Shown: one piece after another, positions 4,898 through 11,961 of the stretch
How the letters are laid out: every line of letters begins with the position of its first letter
Position numbering within the stretch: the first letter of the stretch is position 1
Origin: Escherichia coli
GTDB lineage: Bacteria > Pseudomonadota > Gammaproteobacteria > Enterobacterales > Enterobacteriaceae
Length of the DNA stretch: 64,000 nt
Assembly (NCBI RefSeq): GCF_003334355.1
Contig: NZ_QOWP01000007.1
Direction: 5' to 3' (one strand)
Translations under genes and position numbers: made by a program
Notes under the pieces: model-generated
What the model saw: the letters and a program-made list of their open reading frames with translations, nothing else
What the model was told of the DNA's origin: nothing
Databases searched by the model: none

Positions 4898-5308
4898 TCA
4901 CAAAATGGCGGTCGTCAATCGTGACGAACAGCACAAACGCCCTTTCTCATCGAAGATTTCAATCTGCCAGACCTGGTGACGCGAACCGAGATGCAACGGT
5001 TTGCATACGCCGCGCACCCGCCCTTCTCGTGCCGAGCGGACGTGGTTAGCATTGATTTCCAGACCAACCACTTTTTGCTCACCTTCGGTACATAAATAAC
5101 CGGCAACGGAACCGATACTTTCGGCCAGTACCACGGATGCTCCTCCATGCAGCAACCCGAAAGGCTGCTTTGTCCGCGAGTCTACTGGCATTGTCGCTTC
5201 AAGGGTGTCATCACCAATATGTTCAAAGCGAATATCCAGGAACCCCACCATGTTTCCTTCACCCATAGCATTCAGTGCTTCCAGGGTGATTTTCCGTTTC
5301 CATATCAT
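4898..5308 (-). CDS. menI: 1,4-dihydroxy-2-naphthoyl-CoA hydrolase (hotdog thioesterase)
   Basis: 136-aa ORF; ATGA overlap with the upstream ydiJ stop. Confidence 0.9.
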   Translation of the reverse strand: MIWKRKITLEALNAMGEGNMVGFLDIRFEHIGDDTLEATMPVDSRTKQPFGLLHGGASVVLAESIGSVAGYLCTEGEQKVVGLEINANHVRSAREGRVRGVCKPLHLGSRHQVWQIEIFDEKGRLCCSSRLTTAIL

Positions 5309-8300
5309 TTAATAATCTCCAGTAAAGCCTGCACAGGATGGCGTACCCCCGTGCCTTCAACCCGTTTTACCTGGCTACGGCAGGAATATCCGGTCGCCAG
5401 ACAGCGGTTACGCGGCAGTCGCTGCATAGCCTGATGCCAGGATAACTCATAGATCCCGAGCGAATTTTCATGGTTTTTCGCTTCATGTCCGTAAGTCCCT
5501 GCCATGCCGCAGCAACCCACGCTGACATTTTCCAGTTTCGCGCCAAAACGGGCAAATATCGCGGCCCATTGTGCTGGCGCACCCGGCAAGGCGGTAACTT
5601 CGGTACAGTGACCAAAGAAATACCATGATTCACCGCTGACTGTAGCCACTGGCTGTGACTCAAGTGCGCTTGCCAGCCATTCATTCGCCAGTAAGACGTT
5701 AAACTCGCCACGTTCCTCGCCCAGTGCCAGTTTATATTCATCGCGATAACAAAGTACCAGCGCCGGATCGACGCCTACCATTGGCATACCCAGCTTCGCC
5801 ATACGGTTGAGGAAATCCGCCGTCTTTTTCGCCGTCTTCGCAAAACGATTAAGAAAGCCTTTGATATGCTGGGCTTTGCCATTTGGTGAAAATGGCAGTA
5901 ACACAGGCTGGAAACCTAATTTTTCGACCAGACGGACAAAATCCGCCACCACTTGCGCATCGTAATAGCTGGTAAAGGGGTCCTGCACCACCAACACCGT
6001 GCGCGCTTTCTGCTCTGCATTGAGAGCTTCAAGCTGTTCCAGCGTCATGTTTGCCGAGCGATGCCCCACCATTTGTTGTTGTAGCGAGGGGACCGACAGC
6101 AGTGGCAAATCAACCATGCCGATATGTTTTTCCGAGAGTTTGCGCACCAGCGGCTGGTTAATGAAGAAGTTAAAGGTTTTCGGCGCACGTGCCATCAGCG
6201 GCGCGTAGCTCTCGACCGTAGCGACGAGGTGGTCGCGCAGCGGACGTAAATAACGGGTGTGATAGAGCTGCAGAAAACGAGAGCGAAACTCCGGCACATC
6301 AATTTTGATGGGGCACTGGGTCGAACACGCTTTACAGGCCAGACAGCCCGACATCGCCTCTTTGACTTCGTGTGAGAAGTCATATTCGCCTTTATTCGCA
6401 TGCCAGCTATTGCGCGTGCGGGCAATTAACGTCCGCAAACTGACGCCGGATTCAGGCAGTTCTTGTTCCAGTTTGAGTGGATCAACGCCGCGATCCGCCA
6501 ACAAACGCAGCCATTCACGCACCAGCGTTGCGCGCCCTTTCGGTGAATGAATCCGGTTCTGGGTGATCTTCATCGACGGACACATCGGACTACGGGCATC
6601 AAAGTTGAAGCATAAACCGTTGCCGTTACACTCCATCGCACCGCGCCACTGCTGGCGTACCGCAATGGGGATCTGCCGATCGAATGTACCGCGCTTCACC
6701 GCGTCCACTTTCATCATCGGCGCATCGAGACCTTCTGGCGGGCAAATCTTCCCTGGGTTGAGTCGGTTATGCGGGTCAAATGCCGCTTTCACTTTGCGCA
6801 GTTCTGCAAAAAGTTCCTCACCGAAAAACGCCGGGCTGTATTCAGCGCGAAAACCTTTGCCGTGCTCGCCCCACAACAAACCACCATATTTCGCAGTCAG
6901 CGCCACCACGTCATCAGAGATTTGCTTCATCAAAATCTCTTGTTGCGGATCGCACATATCCAGTGCCGGACGGACGTGCAAGACACCTGCGTCGACGTGA
7001 CCGAACATACCGTAGCTTAAGCCGTGGCTGTCGAGCAGCGCGCGAAATTCAGCAATATAATCGGCCAGATGTTCCGGCGGTACGCAGGTATCCTCAGCAA
7101 ACGGAATTGGCTTAGCGGCACCTTTGGCATTGCCAAGCAGACCAACGGCTTTTTTGCGCATTGCATAGATACGTTCAACCCCCGCCAGCTCACGGCACAT
7201 CTGCCAGCCGATGACACCTGCTTGATGACTGGCGATCAGCTCATCCAACCGCACACAGAGTGCATTTACCCGCTCGTCAATCAGCGCCTCATCATCACCA
7301 GCAAATTCCACAATGTTCAGCCCAAGCATCTCTTTGTCAGGCACATCGGTAATCAACTCGCTGACGGAATGCCAGACAATATCTTCCCGCGCTAGATTCA
7401 GCACTTTTGAGTCCACCGTCTCTACCGAAAGCGCCCGCGCCTCAACCATAAACGGCGCGTTACGCAGCGCTGAGTCAAAAGAGTCATATTTGACATTCAC
7501 CAGACGGCGCACTTTAGGCAAGGGCGTAATATCCAGCCGCGCTTCGGTAATAAAGGCCAGCGTCCCTTCTGAACCCGTCAGAATGCGCGTCAGGTCGAAC
7601 TCGGTCATCTCATCGTTAAAGACATGACGCAGATCGTAACCGGTAAGAAAGCGGTTAAGTTTGGGGAAGTTGTCGATGATTAACTGGCGTTGCTGACGGC
7701 AACGTTGATAAACCGTGTTATAAATTCGCCCGATTGTGGTATTGGATTTACCCAGCGTTTCCGCCAGCTCGACGGGTAAAGGTTGCGTATCGAGAATATC
7801 GCCCCCCAACAACACCGCGCGTACGCCAAGTACGTGATCTGACGTTTTGCCATAGACCAGCGATCCCTGACCAGAAGCATCGGTATTGATCATCCCACCG
7901 AGCGTTGCCCGGTTGCTGGTCGAAAGTTCCGGCGCAAAAAAGTAGCCGAACGGTTTCAGGTACTGATTGAGTTGATCTTTTATCACCCCGGCCTCAACGC
8001 GCACCCAGCCCTCTTCAGGGTTAATTTCGATGATGCGGTTCATATGGCGGGACATATCAACAATAATCCCCTGGTTGAGCGCCTGACCGTTAGTGCCGGT
8101 GCCGCCGCCGCGGGGGGTAAAGATCAGCGATGAATAGCGTTCCTGCGCGGCAAGACGGGCGATCAGCGCCACATCTGCGGTTGAACGCGGAAATACCACC
8201 GCATCGGGGAGAAGTTGGTAAATACTGTTGTCGGTCGACATTGTCAGACGATCGGCATAACTTGTCGCCGTATCGCCGGTAAAACCTTGTTGCTCCAGCT

Positions 8301-8361
8301 CTTGCAAAAAATTAAGCACCAGTTGAACGACGCCGGGTGCCTGGGAAATCTGTGGAATCAT
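5305..8361 (-). CDS. ydiJ: FAD-linked oxidoreductase with Fe-S domain, YdiJ
   Basis: 1018-aa ORF; FAD-binding N-terminal region and Cys clusters (CLACKACSTQC). Confidence 0.95.
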   Translation of the reverse strand: MIPQISQAPGVVQLVLNFLQELEQQGFTGDTATSYADRLTMSTDNSIYQLLPDAVVFPRSTADVALIARLAAQERYSSLIFTPRGGGTGTNGQALNQGIIVDMSRHMNRIIEINPEEGWVRVEAGVIKDQLNQYLKPFGYFFAPELSTSNRATLGGMINTDASGQGSLVYGKTSDHVLGVRAVLLGGDILDTQPLPVELAETLGKSNTTIGRIYNTVYQRCRQQRQLIIDNFPKLNRFLTGYDLRHVFNDEMTEFDLTRILTGSEGTLAFITEARLDITPLPKVRRLVNVKYDSFDSALRNAPFMVEARALSVETVDSKVLNLAREDIVWHSVSELITDVPDKEMLGLNIVEFAGDDEALIDERVNALCVRLDELIASHQAGVIGWQMCRELAGVERIYAMRKKAVGLLGNAKGAAKPIPFAEDTCVPPEHLADYIAEFRALLDSHGLSYGMFGHVDAGVLHVRPALDMCDPQQEILMKQISDDVVALTAKYGGLLWGEHGKGFRAEYSPAFFGEELFAELRKVKAAFDPHNRLNPGKICPPEGLDAPMMKVDAVKRGTFDRQIPIAVRQQWRGAMECNGNGLCFNFDARSPMCPSMKITQNRIHSPKGRATLVREWLRLLADRGVDPLKLEQELPESGVSLRTLIARTRNSWHANKGEYDFSHEVKEAMSGCLACKACSTQCPIKIDVPEFRSRFLQLYHTRYLRPLRDHLVATVESYAPLMARAPKTFNFFINQPLVRKLSEKHIGMVDLPLLSVPSLQQQMVGHRSANMTLEQLEALNAEQKARTVLVVQDPFTSYYDAQVVADFVRLVEKLGFQPVLLPFSPNGKAQHIKGFLNRFAKTAKKTADFLNRMAKLGMPMVGVDPALVLCYRDEYKLALGEERGEFNVLLANEWLASALESQPVATVSGESWYFFGHCTEVTALPGAPAQWAAIFARFGAKLENVSVGCCGMAGTYGHEAKNHENSLGIYELSWHQAMQRLPRNRCLATGYSCRSQVKRVEGTGVRHPVQALLEIIK

Positions 8362-8409
8362 TATATTGACCCTTTCCTGCGGTCTGTGATGTAGGTCGAT
8401 ACACTATTC

Positions 8410-8580
8410 TTTCAGGCGGCTGCAATAGCGCACTGAAAGGTGATGTTTATTTACTCTATGGATTTCGAGTTGCAGGAAGGCGGCAAGCGAGTGAACTCCA
8501 GGAGCTTACAATAGTAAGTGACTGGGGTGAACGAACGTAGCCGCAGCACATGCAACTTGAAATACGACGAGTAAATCGTT
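8410..8580. repeat. ERIC (enterobacterial repetitive intergenic consensus, IRU) element
   Basis: Contains AAGTAAGTGACTGGGGTGAACG and the reverse complement of GTGAACTCCAGGAGCTTACA, matching the two ERIC primer motifs with 1-2 mismatches. Confidence 0.75.
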
Positions 8581-8749
8581 TGCGTGTTGCCTGAGTTGTT
8601 GTACCACATTTTTTTCTAACACGCCCATCAGAATTAAGGGCAGAATCGGCCTGTTAAAAATCGCTGAAATTGCTCATCATTATGCAGGTGAGTTTCGCGT
8701 ATTCACGTCGCGTCGACGATTTGACGCACAAAAAAGGTGAAAAGTAGTT

Positions 8750-9862
8750 ATGGTAAATGTTCGTCAGCCCAGGGATGTCGCACAAATTCTGCTTTCGGTG
8801 CTGTTTTTAGCCATCATGATTGTGGCATGTCTGTGGATTGTTCAACCCTTTATTCTCGGCTTTGCATGGGCCGGTACGGTGGTTATCGCCACCTGGCCGG
8901 TATTGTTACGTTTGCAAAAGATCATGTTTGGCCGCCGCTCTCTCGCCGTTCTGGTGATGACGCTGTTATTAGTGATGGTGTTTATCATCCCTATTGCTTT
9001 GCTGGTTAACAGTATCGTCGACGGCAGCGGCCCGCTAATTAAAGCCATTTCCAGCGGTGACATGACGTTACCCGATCTGGCGTGGCTTAATACCATTCCG
9101 GTGATTGGCGCGAAGCTGTATGCAGGCTGGCACAACTTGCTGGATATGGGGGGGACGGCGATCATGGCGAAAGTCCGCCCTTATATTGGCACCACCACCA
9201 CCTGGTTCGTTGGGCAGGCGGCGCATATCGGGCGCTTTATGGTGCATTGTGCGCTGATGCTTCTCTTCAGTGCCCTGCTGTACTGGCGCGGTGAACAGGT
9301 TGCACAAGGCATTCGCCATTTTGCAACCCGTCTGGCAGGCGTTCGCGGAGATGCCGCCGTACTGCTGGCGGCACAGGCTATCCGCGCGGTGGCGCTGGGT
9401 GTGGTGGTGACGGCGTTAGTACAGGCAGTGCTTGGCGGTATCGGCCTCGCCGTTTCCGGCGTACCTTATGCAACTTTGCTAACGGTGTTAATGATCCTCT
9501 CCTGCCTTGTCCAGCTTGGCCCGTTGCCGGTACTGATTCCGGCGATTATCTGGCTCTACTGGACCGGCGATACCACCTGGGGAACGGTATTGTTAGTGTG
9601 GAGCGGTGTGGTTGGCACGCTGGATAACGTCATCCGCCCAATGTTAATTCGCATGGGTGCCGATTTACCGCTGATCCTGATCCTCTCTGGCGTTATTGGT
9701 GGTTTGATTGCTTTCGGGATGATCGGTCTGTTTATTGGTCCGGTTCTGTTAGCCGTTTCCTGGCGTCTGTTTGCCGCGTGGGTGGAAGAAGTCCCGCCGC
9801 CGACGGACCAACCGGAAGAAATTCTCGAAGAACTTGGCGAAATCGAGAAACCGAATAAGTAA
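8750..9862 (+). CDS. ydiK: AI-2E/UPF0118 family membrane transporter YdiK
   Basis: 370-aa hydrophobic ORF. Confidence 0.9.
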   Translation: MVNVRQPRDVAQILLSVLFLAIMIVACLWIVQPFILGFAWAGTVVIATWPVLLRLQKIMFGRRSLAVLVMTLLLVMVFIIPIALLVNSIVDGSGPLIKAISSGDMTLPDLAWLNTIPVIGAKLYAGWHNLLDMGGTAIMAKVRPYIGTTTTWFVGQAAHIGRFMVHCALMLLFSALLYWRGEQVAQGIRHFATRLAGVRGDAAVLLAAQAIRAVALGVVVTALVQAVLGGIGLAVSGVPYATLLTVLMILSCLVQLGPLPVLIPAIIWLYWTGDTTWGTVLLVWSGVVGTLDNVIRPMLIRMGADLPLILILSGVIGGLIAFGMIGLFIGPVLLAVSWRLFAAWVEEVPPPTDQPEEILEELGEIEKPNK

Positions 9863-10047: not shown

Positions 10048-10152
10048 ACGGTTATAAATCAACATATTGATTTATAAGCATGGAAATCCCCTGAGTGAAA
10101 CAACGAATTGCTGTGTGTAGTCTTTGCCCATCTCCCACGATGGGCTTTTTTT
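10048..10152 (+). ncRNA. rprA: RprA small regulatory RNA (RpoS translation activator)
   Basis: ACGGTTATAAATCAACATATTGATTTATAAGCATGGAAATCCCCTGAGTGAAACAACGAATTGCTGTGTGTAGTCTTTGCCCATCTCCCACGATGGGCTTTTTTT matches the recalled RprA sequence and ends in its terminator hairpin and T-run. Confidence 0.9.
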
Positions 10153-10290
10153 TAACATTTTTCCGCATCGCTACCTCGCCCCTCACTCTTTCCAATAATG
10201 TTGCACAAGATACTGTGACTCTCTTCAAGCCGTCAGCAGGCTGATAATGTTATTTATATTTTATTGTTTATTTCATGCAGCCATTACACG

Positions 10291-10647
10291 ATGAACGCTT
10301 ATGAACTCCAGGCACTCCGCCATATTTTTGCCATGACTATTGATGAATGCGCGACCTGGATTGCCCAGACCGGTGACAGTGAAAGCTGGCGTCAATGGGA
10401 AAATGGCAAGTGTGCCATTCCTGATTGTGTAGTCGAGCAACTGTTGGCTATGCGTCAGCAAAGAAAAAAACATCTTCATGCGATCATAGAGAAAATAAAT
10501 AACCGCATCGGCAACAACACCATGCGTTTTTTCCCCGACTTAACCGCGTTTCAACAAGTCTACCCTGATGGCAATTTTATTGACTGGAAGATCTATCAAT
10601 CGGTAGCCGCTGAATTATATGCACACGATCTGGAGCGGCTTTGTTAA
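10291..10647 (+). CDS. ydiL: Uncharacterized protein YdiL
   Basis: 118 aa from MNAYELQALRH... Confidence 0.8.
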   Translation: MNAYELQALRHIFAMTIDECATWIAQTGDSESWRQWENGKCAIPDCVVEQLLAMRQQRKKHLHAIIEKINNRIGNNTMRFFPDLTAFQQVYPDGNFIDWKIYQSVAAELYAHDLERLC

Positions 10648-10746: not shown

Positions 10747-11961
10747 ATGAAAAATCCCTATTACCCTACCGCACTTGGGTTGTATTTTAATTACCTGGTG
10801 CATGGTATGGGCGTCATTTTGATGAGCCTGAATATGGCCTCGCTGGAGACACTTTGGCAGACTAATGCCACGGGTGTCTCGATAGTTATCTCATCGCTGG
10901 GCATTGGTCGATTAAGTGTCTTGCTTTTTGCAGGATTATTATCCGATCGCTTTGGTCGCCGCCCTTTTATCATGCTCGGGATGTGCTGCTATATGGCCTT
11001 CTTTTTTGGCATCCTGCAGACCAATAACATCATTATCGCTTATGTTTTTGGCTTTCTGGCGGGAATGGCAAACAGTTTTCTCGATGCAGGCACTTATCCC
11101 AGTTTGATGGAAGCTTTTCCACGCTCACCTGGGACAGCCAATATTTTAATTAAAGCATTTGTTTCCAGCGGACAATTTTTATTACCGCTAATCATTAGCC
11201 TGTTAGTGTGGGCTGAACTGTGGTTCGGTTGGTCCTTTATGATTGCTGCAGGCATTATGTTTATTAACGCTCTGTTTTTATACCGTTGTACGTTCCCACC
11301 CCATCCGGGTCGTCGCTTACCTGTCATAAAGAAAACCACCAGCTCTACGGAACATCGCTGTTCAATTATCGATTTAGCCAGTTATACCTTATATGGCTAT
11401 ATCTCAATGGCAACGTTTTATCTGGTTAGCCAGTGGCTGGCACAGTACGGACAATTTGTTGCAGGCATGTCATACACTATGTCGATCAAACTACTCAGTA
11501 TCTACACCGTGGGTTCGCTGCTTTGTGTATTTATTACCGCTCCACTCATTCGTAATACCGTTCGCCCAACAACATTACTGATGCTGTACACCTTTATCTC
11601 ATTTATTGCTCTGTTTACCGTCTGCCTGCATCCCACATTTTATGTGGTGATAATATTTGCTTTTGTCATTGGTTTTACCTCTGCTGGAGGTGTTGTGCAA
11701 ATTGGCCTGACGTTAATGGCTGAACGTTTCCCTTACGCTAAAGGTAAAGCTACAGGGATCTATTACAGTGCGGGCAGTATTGCGACCTTTACTATTCCGT
11801 TGATTACGGCTCATCTGTCCCAAAGAAGTATTGCCGATATTATGTGGTTCGATACCGCCATCGCTGCCATCGGTTTTTTACTGGCACTGTTTATCGGCTT
11901 ACGCAGCCGCAAAAAAACGCGGCATCACTCGCTAAAGGAAAATGTCGCTCCGGGTGGGTAA
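10747..11961 (+). CDS. ydiM: MFS transporter YdiM
   Basis: 404-aa polytopic membrane ORF. Confidence 0.9.
   Translation: MKNPYYPTALGLYFNYLVHGMGVILMSLNMASLETLWQTNATGVSIVISSLGIGRLSVLLFAGLLSDRFGRRPFIMLGMCCYMAFFFGILQTNNIIIAYVFGFLAGMANSFLDAGTYPSLMEAFPRSPGTANILIKAFVSSGQFLLPLIISLLVWAELWFGWSFMIAAGIMFINALFLYRCTFPPHPGRRLPVIKKTTSSTEHRCSIIDLASYTLYGYISMATFYLVSQWLAQYGQFVAGMSYTMSIKLLSIYTVGSLLCVFITAPLIRNTVRPTTLLMLYTFISFIALFTVCLHPTFYVVIIFAFVIGFTSAGGVVQIGLTLMAERFPYAKGKATGIYYSAGSIATFTIPLITAHLSQRSIADIMWFDTAIAAIGFLLALFIGLRSRKKTRHHSLKENVAPGG

Follow-up and report, generated by a model that had tools for sequence, protein, structure and literature searches.

The ydiJ-ydiK spacer contains a full-length ERIC element

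The stretch of DNA analysed here (hereafter, the window) comprises 64,000 nt of Escherichia coli contig NZ_QOWP01000007.1 (assembly GCF_003334355.1) and includes the divergent genes ydiJ and ydiK, which are separated by a 388-bp spacer (8362-8749). Inside this spacer, positions 8450-8575 hold a 126-bp full-length ERIC/IRU copy (ERIC, enterobacterial repetitive intergenic consensus) with the orientation of the Wilson and Sharp consensus on the + strand. We found that this copy is transcribed as part of the 5′ leader of the ydiJ-menI-ydiH mRNA and that, jointly with a 53-nt insert lying next to it, it is present in some E. coli strains and absent from others. The location between ydiJ and ydiK, already proposed in an earlier sequence-only reading of the window, agrees with the RefSeq annotation of identical or near-identical loci, MG1655 among the matching ones; the RefSeq annotation of MG1655 holds no feature at the ERIC site. 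The features of the locus are as follows.

5305-8361, - strand: ydiJ, D-2-hydroxyglutarate dehydrogenase, 1018 amino acids (open reading frame (ORF) list, RefSeq annotation of matching loci)
8362-8590, - strand: 5′ leader of the ydiJ-menI-ydiH mRNA, 229 nt (published maps of transcriptional start sites (TSSs))
8394-8446, + strand: unique 53-nt insert (alignment with outgroups and with empty alleles, those without the ERIC)
8441, - strand: secondary ydiJ 5′ end, 25 reads (Kim et al. 2012; 1,766,789 in version 2 of the MG1655 coordinates)
8449-8474, + strand: left terminal inverted-repeat arm of the ERIC, pairing with 8551-8576
8450-8575, + strand: ERIC/IRU element, 126 bp
8495-8528, + strand: central conserved inverted repeat with the ERIC1R and ERIC2 sites (fold, primer alignments)
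8551-8576, + strand: right terminal inverted-repeat arm (repeat search, fold, family alignment)
8598-8606, - strand: putative ydiJ promoter, with -10 hexamer TACAAC at 8598-8603 and an upstream TG at 8605-8606 (proposed from the sequence)
8652 and 8687/8688, + strand: ydiK start sites, to the right of the ERIC (published TSS maps)
8750-9862, + strand: ydiK, AI-2E family transporter, 370 amino acids (ORF list, RefSeq annotation of matching loci)

Knowledge of ERIC elements goes back to 1990-91, and catalogues of the E. coli copies exist. The family as such, its variability among strains and the link to mRNA stability proposed for it are matters of long standing, so that the finding is known in kind. 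As references we used the 127-nt E. coli ERIC consensus (Wilson and Sharp 2006) and the Salmonella SeRU-1 copy, both from Table 1a of PMC2759123. Local alignment gave 97/114 identities with the former (score 141) and 107/123 with the latter (score 164), while the maximum score reached in 500 shuffles of the spacer was 27; identity to the published sequences thus amounts to 85-87% over the whole consensus length. An nhmmer profile built on this published pair matched 8452-8573 with E = 1e-31 and returned no second ERIC in the 64-kb window at E <= 1e-3, and a profile of 11 ERIC copies matched 8450-8574 with E = 1e-36, covering profile positions 1-125. Both sites for the ERIC primers of the polymerase chain reaction (PCR) were found, in inverted arrangement: ERIC2 matches at 20/22 positions, and ERIC1R, on the opposite strand, agrees at 19 bases over its last 21 positions, the alignment having one mismatch and one gap. 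These results bear out the sequence-only reading in so far as it had recognised an ERIC with both halves in inverted arrangement. The limits that it had assigned to the element, 8410-8580, have to be corrected to 8450-8575: its start lay 40 nt too early, and 8410-8449 belongs mostly to the separate 53-nt insert.

The element is predicted to fold as one long hairpin, with a free energy of -59.8 kcal/mol (z = -10.3) for the + strand and of -42.2 kcal/mol (z = -6.3) for the - strand. At its centre, the conserved inverted repeat pairs 8495-8501 with 8522-8528 and 8504-8509 with 8514-8519 around an AATA loop, and includes the exact 18-mer AGTAAGTGACTGGGGTGA, which occurs once in the window. At its ends, the two terminal arms are 26 nt long and 81% complementary. 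Alignment of 11 members of the ERIC family revealed compensatory double changes at 12 of the 38 predicted pairs. The termini read TTTAC...GTAAA here and TATAC...GTATA in the consensus, that is, both arms have changed and yet are still complementary. Also, the junctions deviate by 1-2 nt from the TA-duplication model, the duplication having probably decayed to the point of being unreadable at this old copy; a related copy (locus L051, 2330-2456), when compared with the empty locus L057, shows a clean TA duplication. Taken together, 8450-8575 is a genuine ERIC/IRU, with every testable feature of the family save a readable TA duplication.

Matches to the family occur in all of the 5426 complete E. 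coli genomes (5426/5426), with 2-18 ERIC-like places per genome (median 12), and further copies lie at other sites in loci L069, L083 and L003. In Rfam, two small RNA (sRNA) families matched within 8449-8614 over their full model length, V_AS5 (RF02818) with 42.7 bits against a threshold of 96 and Ysr49 (RF02766) with 29.5 bits against a threshold of 95. Membership in either family was rejected, both scores being far under the gathering threshold; V_AS5 (Vibrio) and Ysr49 (Yersinia) appear to have been built on ERIC copies of other genera.

The ERIC is transcribed in the 5′ leader of the ydiJ-menI-ydiH mRNA

Published transcript data for MG1655 were placed on the window by means of the annotated genes. 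A window position equals the version 3 coordinate of MG1655 minus 1,760,324, and version 2 coordinates equal those of version 3 minus 1,976, an offset that we verified with the coordinates of rprA and other genes in the supplement of Kim et al. The ydiJ TSS reported by Kim et al. 2012 (PMC3415461, supplementary file 2) at 1,766,938 (version 2), with 49 reads and a 229-nt untranslated region, maps to 8590 on the - strand. SMRT-Cappable-seq (PMC6131387, supplementary file 4) places the reverse-strand start of operons b1687|b1686 and b1687|b1686|b1685 at 1,768,914/5, corresponding to 8590/8591 of the window. Two independent published maps therefore agree on 8590 as the start of ydiJ-menI-ydiH. 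It follows that the ERIC enters the RNA in the form of its - strand, from 15 nt past the ydiJ start onwards. In the leader, the ERIC hairpin (+15 to +141) comes first and is followed by the hairpin of the 53-nt insert; the leader of an empty allele would be 54 nt long.

On the other side of the spacer, SMRT-Cappable-seq (PMC6131387) gives ydiK TSSs at 1,768,976 and 1,769,011, that is, 8652 and 8687, and Kim et al. 2012 (PMC3415461) list two weak ones, at 8520 (3 reads, within the ERIC) and 8688 (2 reads). As the main ydiK starts lie to the right of the ERIC, the element is absent from the main ydiK transcripts. The suggestion in the sequence-only reading that the element might act on the flanking transcripts is hence too broad: it could apply to the ydiJ-menI-ydiH leader, which contains the element, but not to the main ydiK transcripts, which start beyond it.

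Upstream of 8590, the - strand reads TGTGGTACAAC, an extended -10-like motif that is kept across genera in the spacer alignment (+ strand GTTGTA(T/C)CACATTTTTTT) and that probably constitutes the ydiJ promoter, to judge from its sequence and position; a scan of 8300-8800 for the strict sigma-70 consensus returned no promoter. The published paper on the ydiJ enzyme contains nothing on the native regulation of ydiJ.

Full-length SMRT-Cappable-seq reads starting at 8590 cover ydiJ-menI(-ydiH), which means that the ERIC does not stop transcription. The RNA after the ERIC hairpin reads GAGUAAAUAAACAUCACC and has no U run, no terminator-like site was found in 8362-8749, and the supplements of a published 3′-end map list no 3′ end in the ydiJ leader. 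On these grounds, together with the read-through, a role of the element as terminator or attenuator was rejected. Between the two hairpins runs an A/U-rich linker, and the secondary 5′ end at 8441 maps to it, at a distance of 9 nt from the base of the preceding ERIC hairpin and of 2 nt from the hairpin of the 53-nt insert that follows; the SMRT-Cappable-seq operon table (PMC6131387) lacks this end. This end represents either a processing site or the product of a weak promoter supplied by the ERIC.

The ERIC and a linked 53-nt insert form a two-state polymorphism

The 53-nt insert lies 3 nt to the left of the ERIC and is flanked by a 7-nt direct repeat, GTGATGT, at 8387-8393 and 8440-8446. In the leader fold it forms a hairpin in which CTTTCAG (8409-8415) pairs with CTGAAAG (8433-8439). 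We considered the possibility that 8389-8451 was a shortened ERIC in the opposite orientation and rejected it, since 299 of 1000 shuffles aligned to the consensus equally well or better. Likewise, the 11-sequence ERIC profile (nhmmer --max) did not find this left extension at E <= 10. By its sequence, the insert is not recognisably ERIC-derived.

Comparison of the spacer across the 5426 complete E. coli genomes confirmed that the element is strain-variable, as had been predicted from the sequence. The 388-bp spacer with the ERIC occurs in 4256 genomes (78%) and an empty junction in 1168 (22%), the two states together accounting for 5424/5426. In the empty allele, found for example in an O25:H4 strain (locus L001), the spacer measures 213 bp. 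This allele probably belongs, in essence, to phylogroup B2. The 4256 genomes with the ERIC, and no others, have the segment 8389-8449, each of them in one copy, so linkage is complete, and the difference of 175 bp between the filled and the empty allele corresponds to 53 (insert) + 126 (ERIC) - 4. Consequently, the polymorphism is a compound one and not the clean gain or loss of an ERIC that the sequence-only reading had implied, but its use as a two-state typing marker holds: the clean 78:22 split makes the spacer a simple PCR-size marker. In the genomes sampled for this purpose, ERIC places numbered 3-11 in those lacking the ydiJ copy (most 3-6, one 11) and 8-14 in those carrying it, which points to a lineage-wide difference in ERIC load, the lineage being presumably B2.

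The insertion is old and the empty state resembles the ancestral one

For the comparison of spacers between species we used 80 species-level loci found by a YdiK search. Nearly all non-Escherichia Enterobacteriaceae (70 or more) have a 200-260-bp spacer with no ERIC. The left flank of the ERIC, TGATGTTTA, and its right flank, ATCG, rebuild the ancestral Citrobacter sequence TGAATTTAATCG, indicating that the ERIC inserted at the TA of this sequence. The empty junction of B2 strains, ATGAGAGATTAATCG, aligns with Citrobacter TTGTGAATTTAATCG. Since the outgroups are empty and the B2 junction aligns in this way, the empty state is ancestral-like. Excision from the present filled allele did not give rise to the empty one, as the bases adjacent to the junction differ.

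E. albertii, E. whittamii and another two Escherichia genomes have the filled allele as well, and the empty allele common to B2 strains was found in Escherichia sp. (MOD1-EC7003). In a local gene tree built on distances at four-fold sites, filled alleles occupy the deepest Escherichia branches and empty alleles two shallow branches that are not sisters. To account for this pattern, one old insertion followed by exchange of alleles via recombination, or else a long-lived polymorphism, is needed. The ydiJ-ydiK ERIC is an old, immobile copy.

Other lineages have acquired an ERIC in the ydiJ-ydiK spacer independently. Such insertions, like the filled and empty sites of E. coli, testify to past mobility. 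There are at least four of these lineages, with the element mostly at the same spot and in both orientations (coordinates refer to each locus).

L049, Enterobacter genomosp. O: ERIC at 2203-2329, in the opposite orientation
L042, Enterobacter sp. JUb54: ERIC at 2213-2339
L051, record titled 'Chryseobacterium sp. 18061': two ERICs, one at 2090-2215 and one, with a clean TA duplication, at 2330-2456
L021, C. amalonaticus S646: ERIC at 2144-2347, lengthened by an internal insert of 85 nt

Four insertion events, that of Escherichia included, lie a few bases at most from the conserved ATCGTTTGCGT block, at positions 11-16 nt downstream of the ydiJ start, and at this spot Salmonella has a 50-nt insert of unrelated sequence. 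This recurrent site is either a preferred target or merely a part of the leader that tolerates insertions. The L051 record carries enterobacterial ydiJ and ydiK and is likely to be mislabelled or contaminated. In a different context, the promoter region between the divergent genes ybtP and ybtA of the yersiniabactin island, plasmid pH222-1 (locus L003, 1487-1689) carries an ERIC with a 77-nt internal insertion, and the 85-nt insertion of C. amalonaticus S646 occupies the same internal position. These internally split copies look like a recurrent 'long ERIC' variant.

The ERIC is conserved between Escherichia species

We calculated the divergence of the window from other Escherichia genomes for the ERIC and for several regions around it, among them the sRNA gene rprA. 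Mapping from MG1655 places rprA at 10048-10153 (+), directly after ydiK; it is followed by ydiL (10291-10647) and by ydiM, which begins at 10747.

ERIC: 6/126 differences versus E. albertii; 4/126 versus E. whittamii
8389-8449: 5/61 versus E. albertii; 5/61 versus E. whittamii
Rest of the spacer, 8576-8749: 8/174 versus E. albertii; 5/174 versus E. whittamii
Four-fold sites of ydiJ and ydiK: 0.41 versus E. albertii; 0.27 versus E. whittamii
Three neighbouring spacers: 10-16% versus E. albertii; 9-19% versus E. whittamii
rprA: 4.8% versus E. albertii; 0% versus E. whittamii

At the rate of the four-fold sites, so few differences from E. albertii in the ERIC would be expected with P = 2e-20. The ERIC is also significantly less diverged than the three neighbouring spacers when these are pooled (14% versus E. 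albertii): the binomial test gave P = 7e-4 (E. albertii) and 8e-4 (E. whittamii), and Fisher's test P = 0.0025 with either species. The ERIC is conserved between Escherichia species to the same degree as rprA. In the family alignment, the deviations of the ydiJ ERIC from the consensus are common to all the Escherichia copies, so that the conservation is orthologous and not the result of homogenisation by other ERIC copies. The unusually low divergence of the element between species (3-5%) suggests constraint. The genome of SCPM-O-B-8794 (L006), labelled as E. coli, differs at 2/126 positions of the ERIC and at 0.28 of the four-fold sites; with this 28% four-fold divergence, it is atypical for E. 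coli at the ydiJ-ydiK locus.

Low divergence is not restricted to the element. The first 150 nt of ydiJ (8212-8361) and of ydiK (8750-8899) are 2-5 times less diverged than the remainder of the genes, silent positions included, and this holds in every comparison, within Escherichia, for empty-allele lineages and across genera. The 5′ coding regions of both genes, or regulatory sequence in them, thus also seem to be constrained, and part of the low-divergence signal is regional because these first 150 nt show the same reduction. Recent introgression of the filled allele as the sole cause was rejected, given that empty-allele lineages and other genera show the low 5′ divergence as well. As the filled/empty pattern disagrees with the local gene tree, introgression is only partly discounted.

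Leader fold and possible function of the element

We folded the 229-nt leader together with 36 nt of coding sequence. In the resulting structure the ERIC and the 53-nt insert make two independent hairpins, neither of which touches the ydiJ ribosome-binding site; the latter pairs locally with the early coding sequence in both alleles. A repeat search showed that a segment of the - strand of the ERIC, UUGCCGCCUUCCUGC, is complementary to the ydiJ ribosome-binding region, which made it a candidate anti-Shine-Dalgarno sequence. This role was rejected, as filled and empty leaders do not differ appreciably in the mean unpaired probability of the ribosome-binding region (0.35 and 0.37, respectively).

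The reading that we favour, and to which we assign a probability of roughly 55%, is that an old ERIC in the ydiJ leader segregates as a two-state polymorphism and that any effect it has bears on processing or decay of the leader. In the predicted leader RNA both hairpins leave the ribosome-binding site untouched, and an effect would therefore most likely concern these steps. Cleavage in the A/U-rich linker between the hairpins might then yield an mRNA starting 2 nt before a protective stem-loop; the second 5′ end at 8441 is a hint of such processing. By analogy with related elements, a role of the ydiJ ERIC in mRNA stability, as the sequence-only reading had proposed, is plausible; an indirect sign that the element may have a function is its unusually low divergence between species. 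Since B2-type strains manage without the element, its influence on ydiJ expression is probably a modest one. Several observations weigh against assigning the element such a role. As many as 22% of E. coli genomes and most other genera keep the operon with no ERIC in its leader. The leaders of other genera hold ERICs in both orientations, which argues against a function strictly dependent on orientation. It is the - strand that is transcribed, and its hairpin is the weaker one (-42 versus -60 kcal/mol). Only one data set, with 25 reads, records the 8441 end. Finally, the rest of the spacer and the gene starts are conserved too, so that the low divergence of the ERIC could be a property of the region.

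An alternative is that the ERIC is a neutral relic, a dead selfish element in a tolerant part of the leader whose low divergence is regional and whose polymorphism is mere history. We regard this explanation as quite possible, although we do not prefer it. Relative to the rest of the genes, divergence is reduced 2-5-fold across the entire block 8212-8899, to which the first 50 codons of both genes belong, also in lineages with the empty allele; the element is missing from 1168 genomes and from most genera; insertions occur at the same site in either orientation and Salmonella has unrelated inserts there; and the predicted accessibility of the ribosome-binding site is unaltered. A dead insert, however, is expected to drift no slower than ordinary spacer DNA, whereas the ERIC, with a divergence of 3-5%, matches rprA and the part of the spacer that bears the promoter, and stays 2-4 times under the three neighbouring spacers and about 8 times under the four-fold sites. 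At the opposite end, the ERIC and the 53-nt hairpin might have been co-opted as a conserved two-hairpin leader module that sets the processing and stability of the ydiJ-menI-ydiH mRNA, with the region ~11-16 nt past the TSS serving as a recurrent landing pad, an extension that we consider doubtful. If it were true, ERICs would have become fixed in at least four further lineages because leader hairpins are advantageous there or because the site is targeted.

The remaining explanations give the element a role other than that of a leader hairpin. Its action as a donor of promoters, with a leftward start at 8441 for ydiJ and a rightward start at 8520 for ydiK driven by the TACAAT of the central loop, is unlikely. 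Kim et al. 2012 (PMC3415461) do list both positions as TSSs (25 and 3 reads, respectively) and TACAAT lies 7 nt upstream of 8520, but both starts are missing from the SMRT-Cappable-seq operon table (PMC6131387), the hexamers before 8441 are poor (TAAATA or TAAACA, with CTGCAA), the consensus scan was negative and the read counts are low. We give still less weight to an action at the DNA level, in which the palindrome, for example by forming a cruciform or by binding a protein, would influence supercoiling or the two divergent promoters. The 126-bp near-palindrome does lie 8-22 bp from the ydiJ promoter region, and the compensatory changes in the family fit DNA pairing, or a requirement for terminal repeats, equally well. 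Yet the ERIC is located downstream of the ydiJ start, not between both promoters, and the ERIC reviews give no DNA motifs beyond the terminal repeats (PMC2229807). Least probable of all, to the point of being hardly credible, is a small-protein gene across the reverse complement of the element, along the lines proposed by Delihas, who describes a 42-amino-acid frame within the consensus. Two overlapping ORFs of 52 amino acids (8451-8609, -) and 40 amino acids (8506-8628, -) exist here, but their start codons are upstream of the ydiJ TSS at 8590, off the main transcript, and the sole ATG in the leader, inside the ERIC, has no Shine-Dalgarno sequence. Both peptide ORFs were rejected on account of start codons outside the mapped transcript.

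The main value of the analysis is a correct annotation of the element, namely its limits, its placement in the ydiJ leader and its absence from the main ydiK transcripts. To this are added the compound 78:22 polymorphism, the finding that the ERIC is strongly conserved between species and the recurrence of insertions at one position of the leader. The naturally occurring filled and empty alleles provide a convenient natural test of the effect of a leader ERIC on the fate of the mRNA.

Comparison with known systems

The ydiJ copy resembles the rest of the ERIC/IRU family in its length (126 versus 127 bp), its 85-87% identity, the central repeat with the primer sites, the terminal repeats and the long hairpin. 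Like other members, it coexists with multiple copies in the same genomes, is extragenic and yet transcribed, and is polymorphic for presence or absence among strains. It differs from them in that it is located in a 5′ leader beside a promoter, and not between or after co-transcribed genes, and in having altered termini, an unreadable TA duplication and a linked unique 53-nt insert.

In Yersinia, according to what reviews relate of the work of De Gregorio et al. 2005 (PMC2229807, PMC10969869), ERICs destabilise the upstream mRNA in an orientation-dependent manner linked to RNase E, and the same reviews mention an RNase E site proposed in a terminal repeat. These elements belong to the same family, lie within an mRNA and form a hairpin; in the ydiJ copy, the hairpin is followed by an A/U-rich single strand in which a 5′ end was mapped. 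In contrast, the Yersinia ERICs, as the reviews present them, follow coding regions or separate them, and the model requires translating ribosomes to enter the element, whereas nothing is translated upstream of the ydiJ ERIC.

The Correia elements of Neisseria (CREE/NEMIS) are miniature inverted-repeat transposable elements with TA ends that often lie in leaders beside promoters and form mRNA hairpins processable by RNase (PMC10969869). The ydiJ ERIC is likewise a miniature inverted-repeat element and shares with them the leader position near a promoter and the hairpin in the mRNA. Correia elements have an unrelated sequence and another host; for them, integration host factor (IHF) sites, promoters and RNase III cleavage inside the stem are on record.

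Stem-loops at the very 5′ end, such as that of the ompA leader, shield mRNAs from attack by RNase E that depends on the 5′ end. The primary ydiJ transcript differs from this type of leader in having ~14 unpaired nt before the ERIC hairpin, and the ERIC itself is therefore not a 5′-terminal stabiliser. The likeness, by analogy, would arise after processing: if the leader were cut at 8441, the ydiJ mRNA would start 2 nt before a stem-loop.

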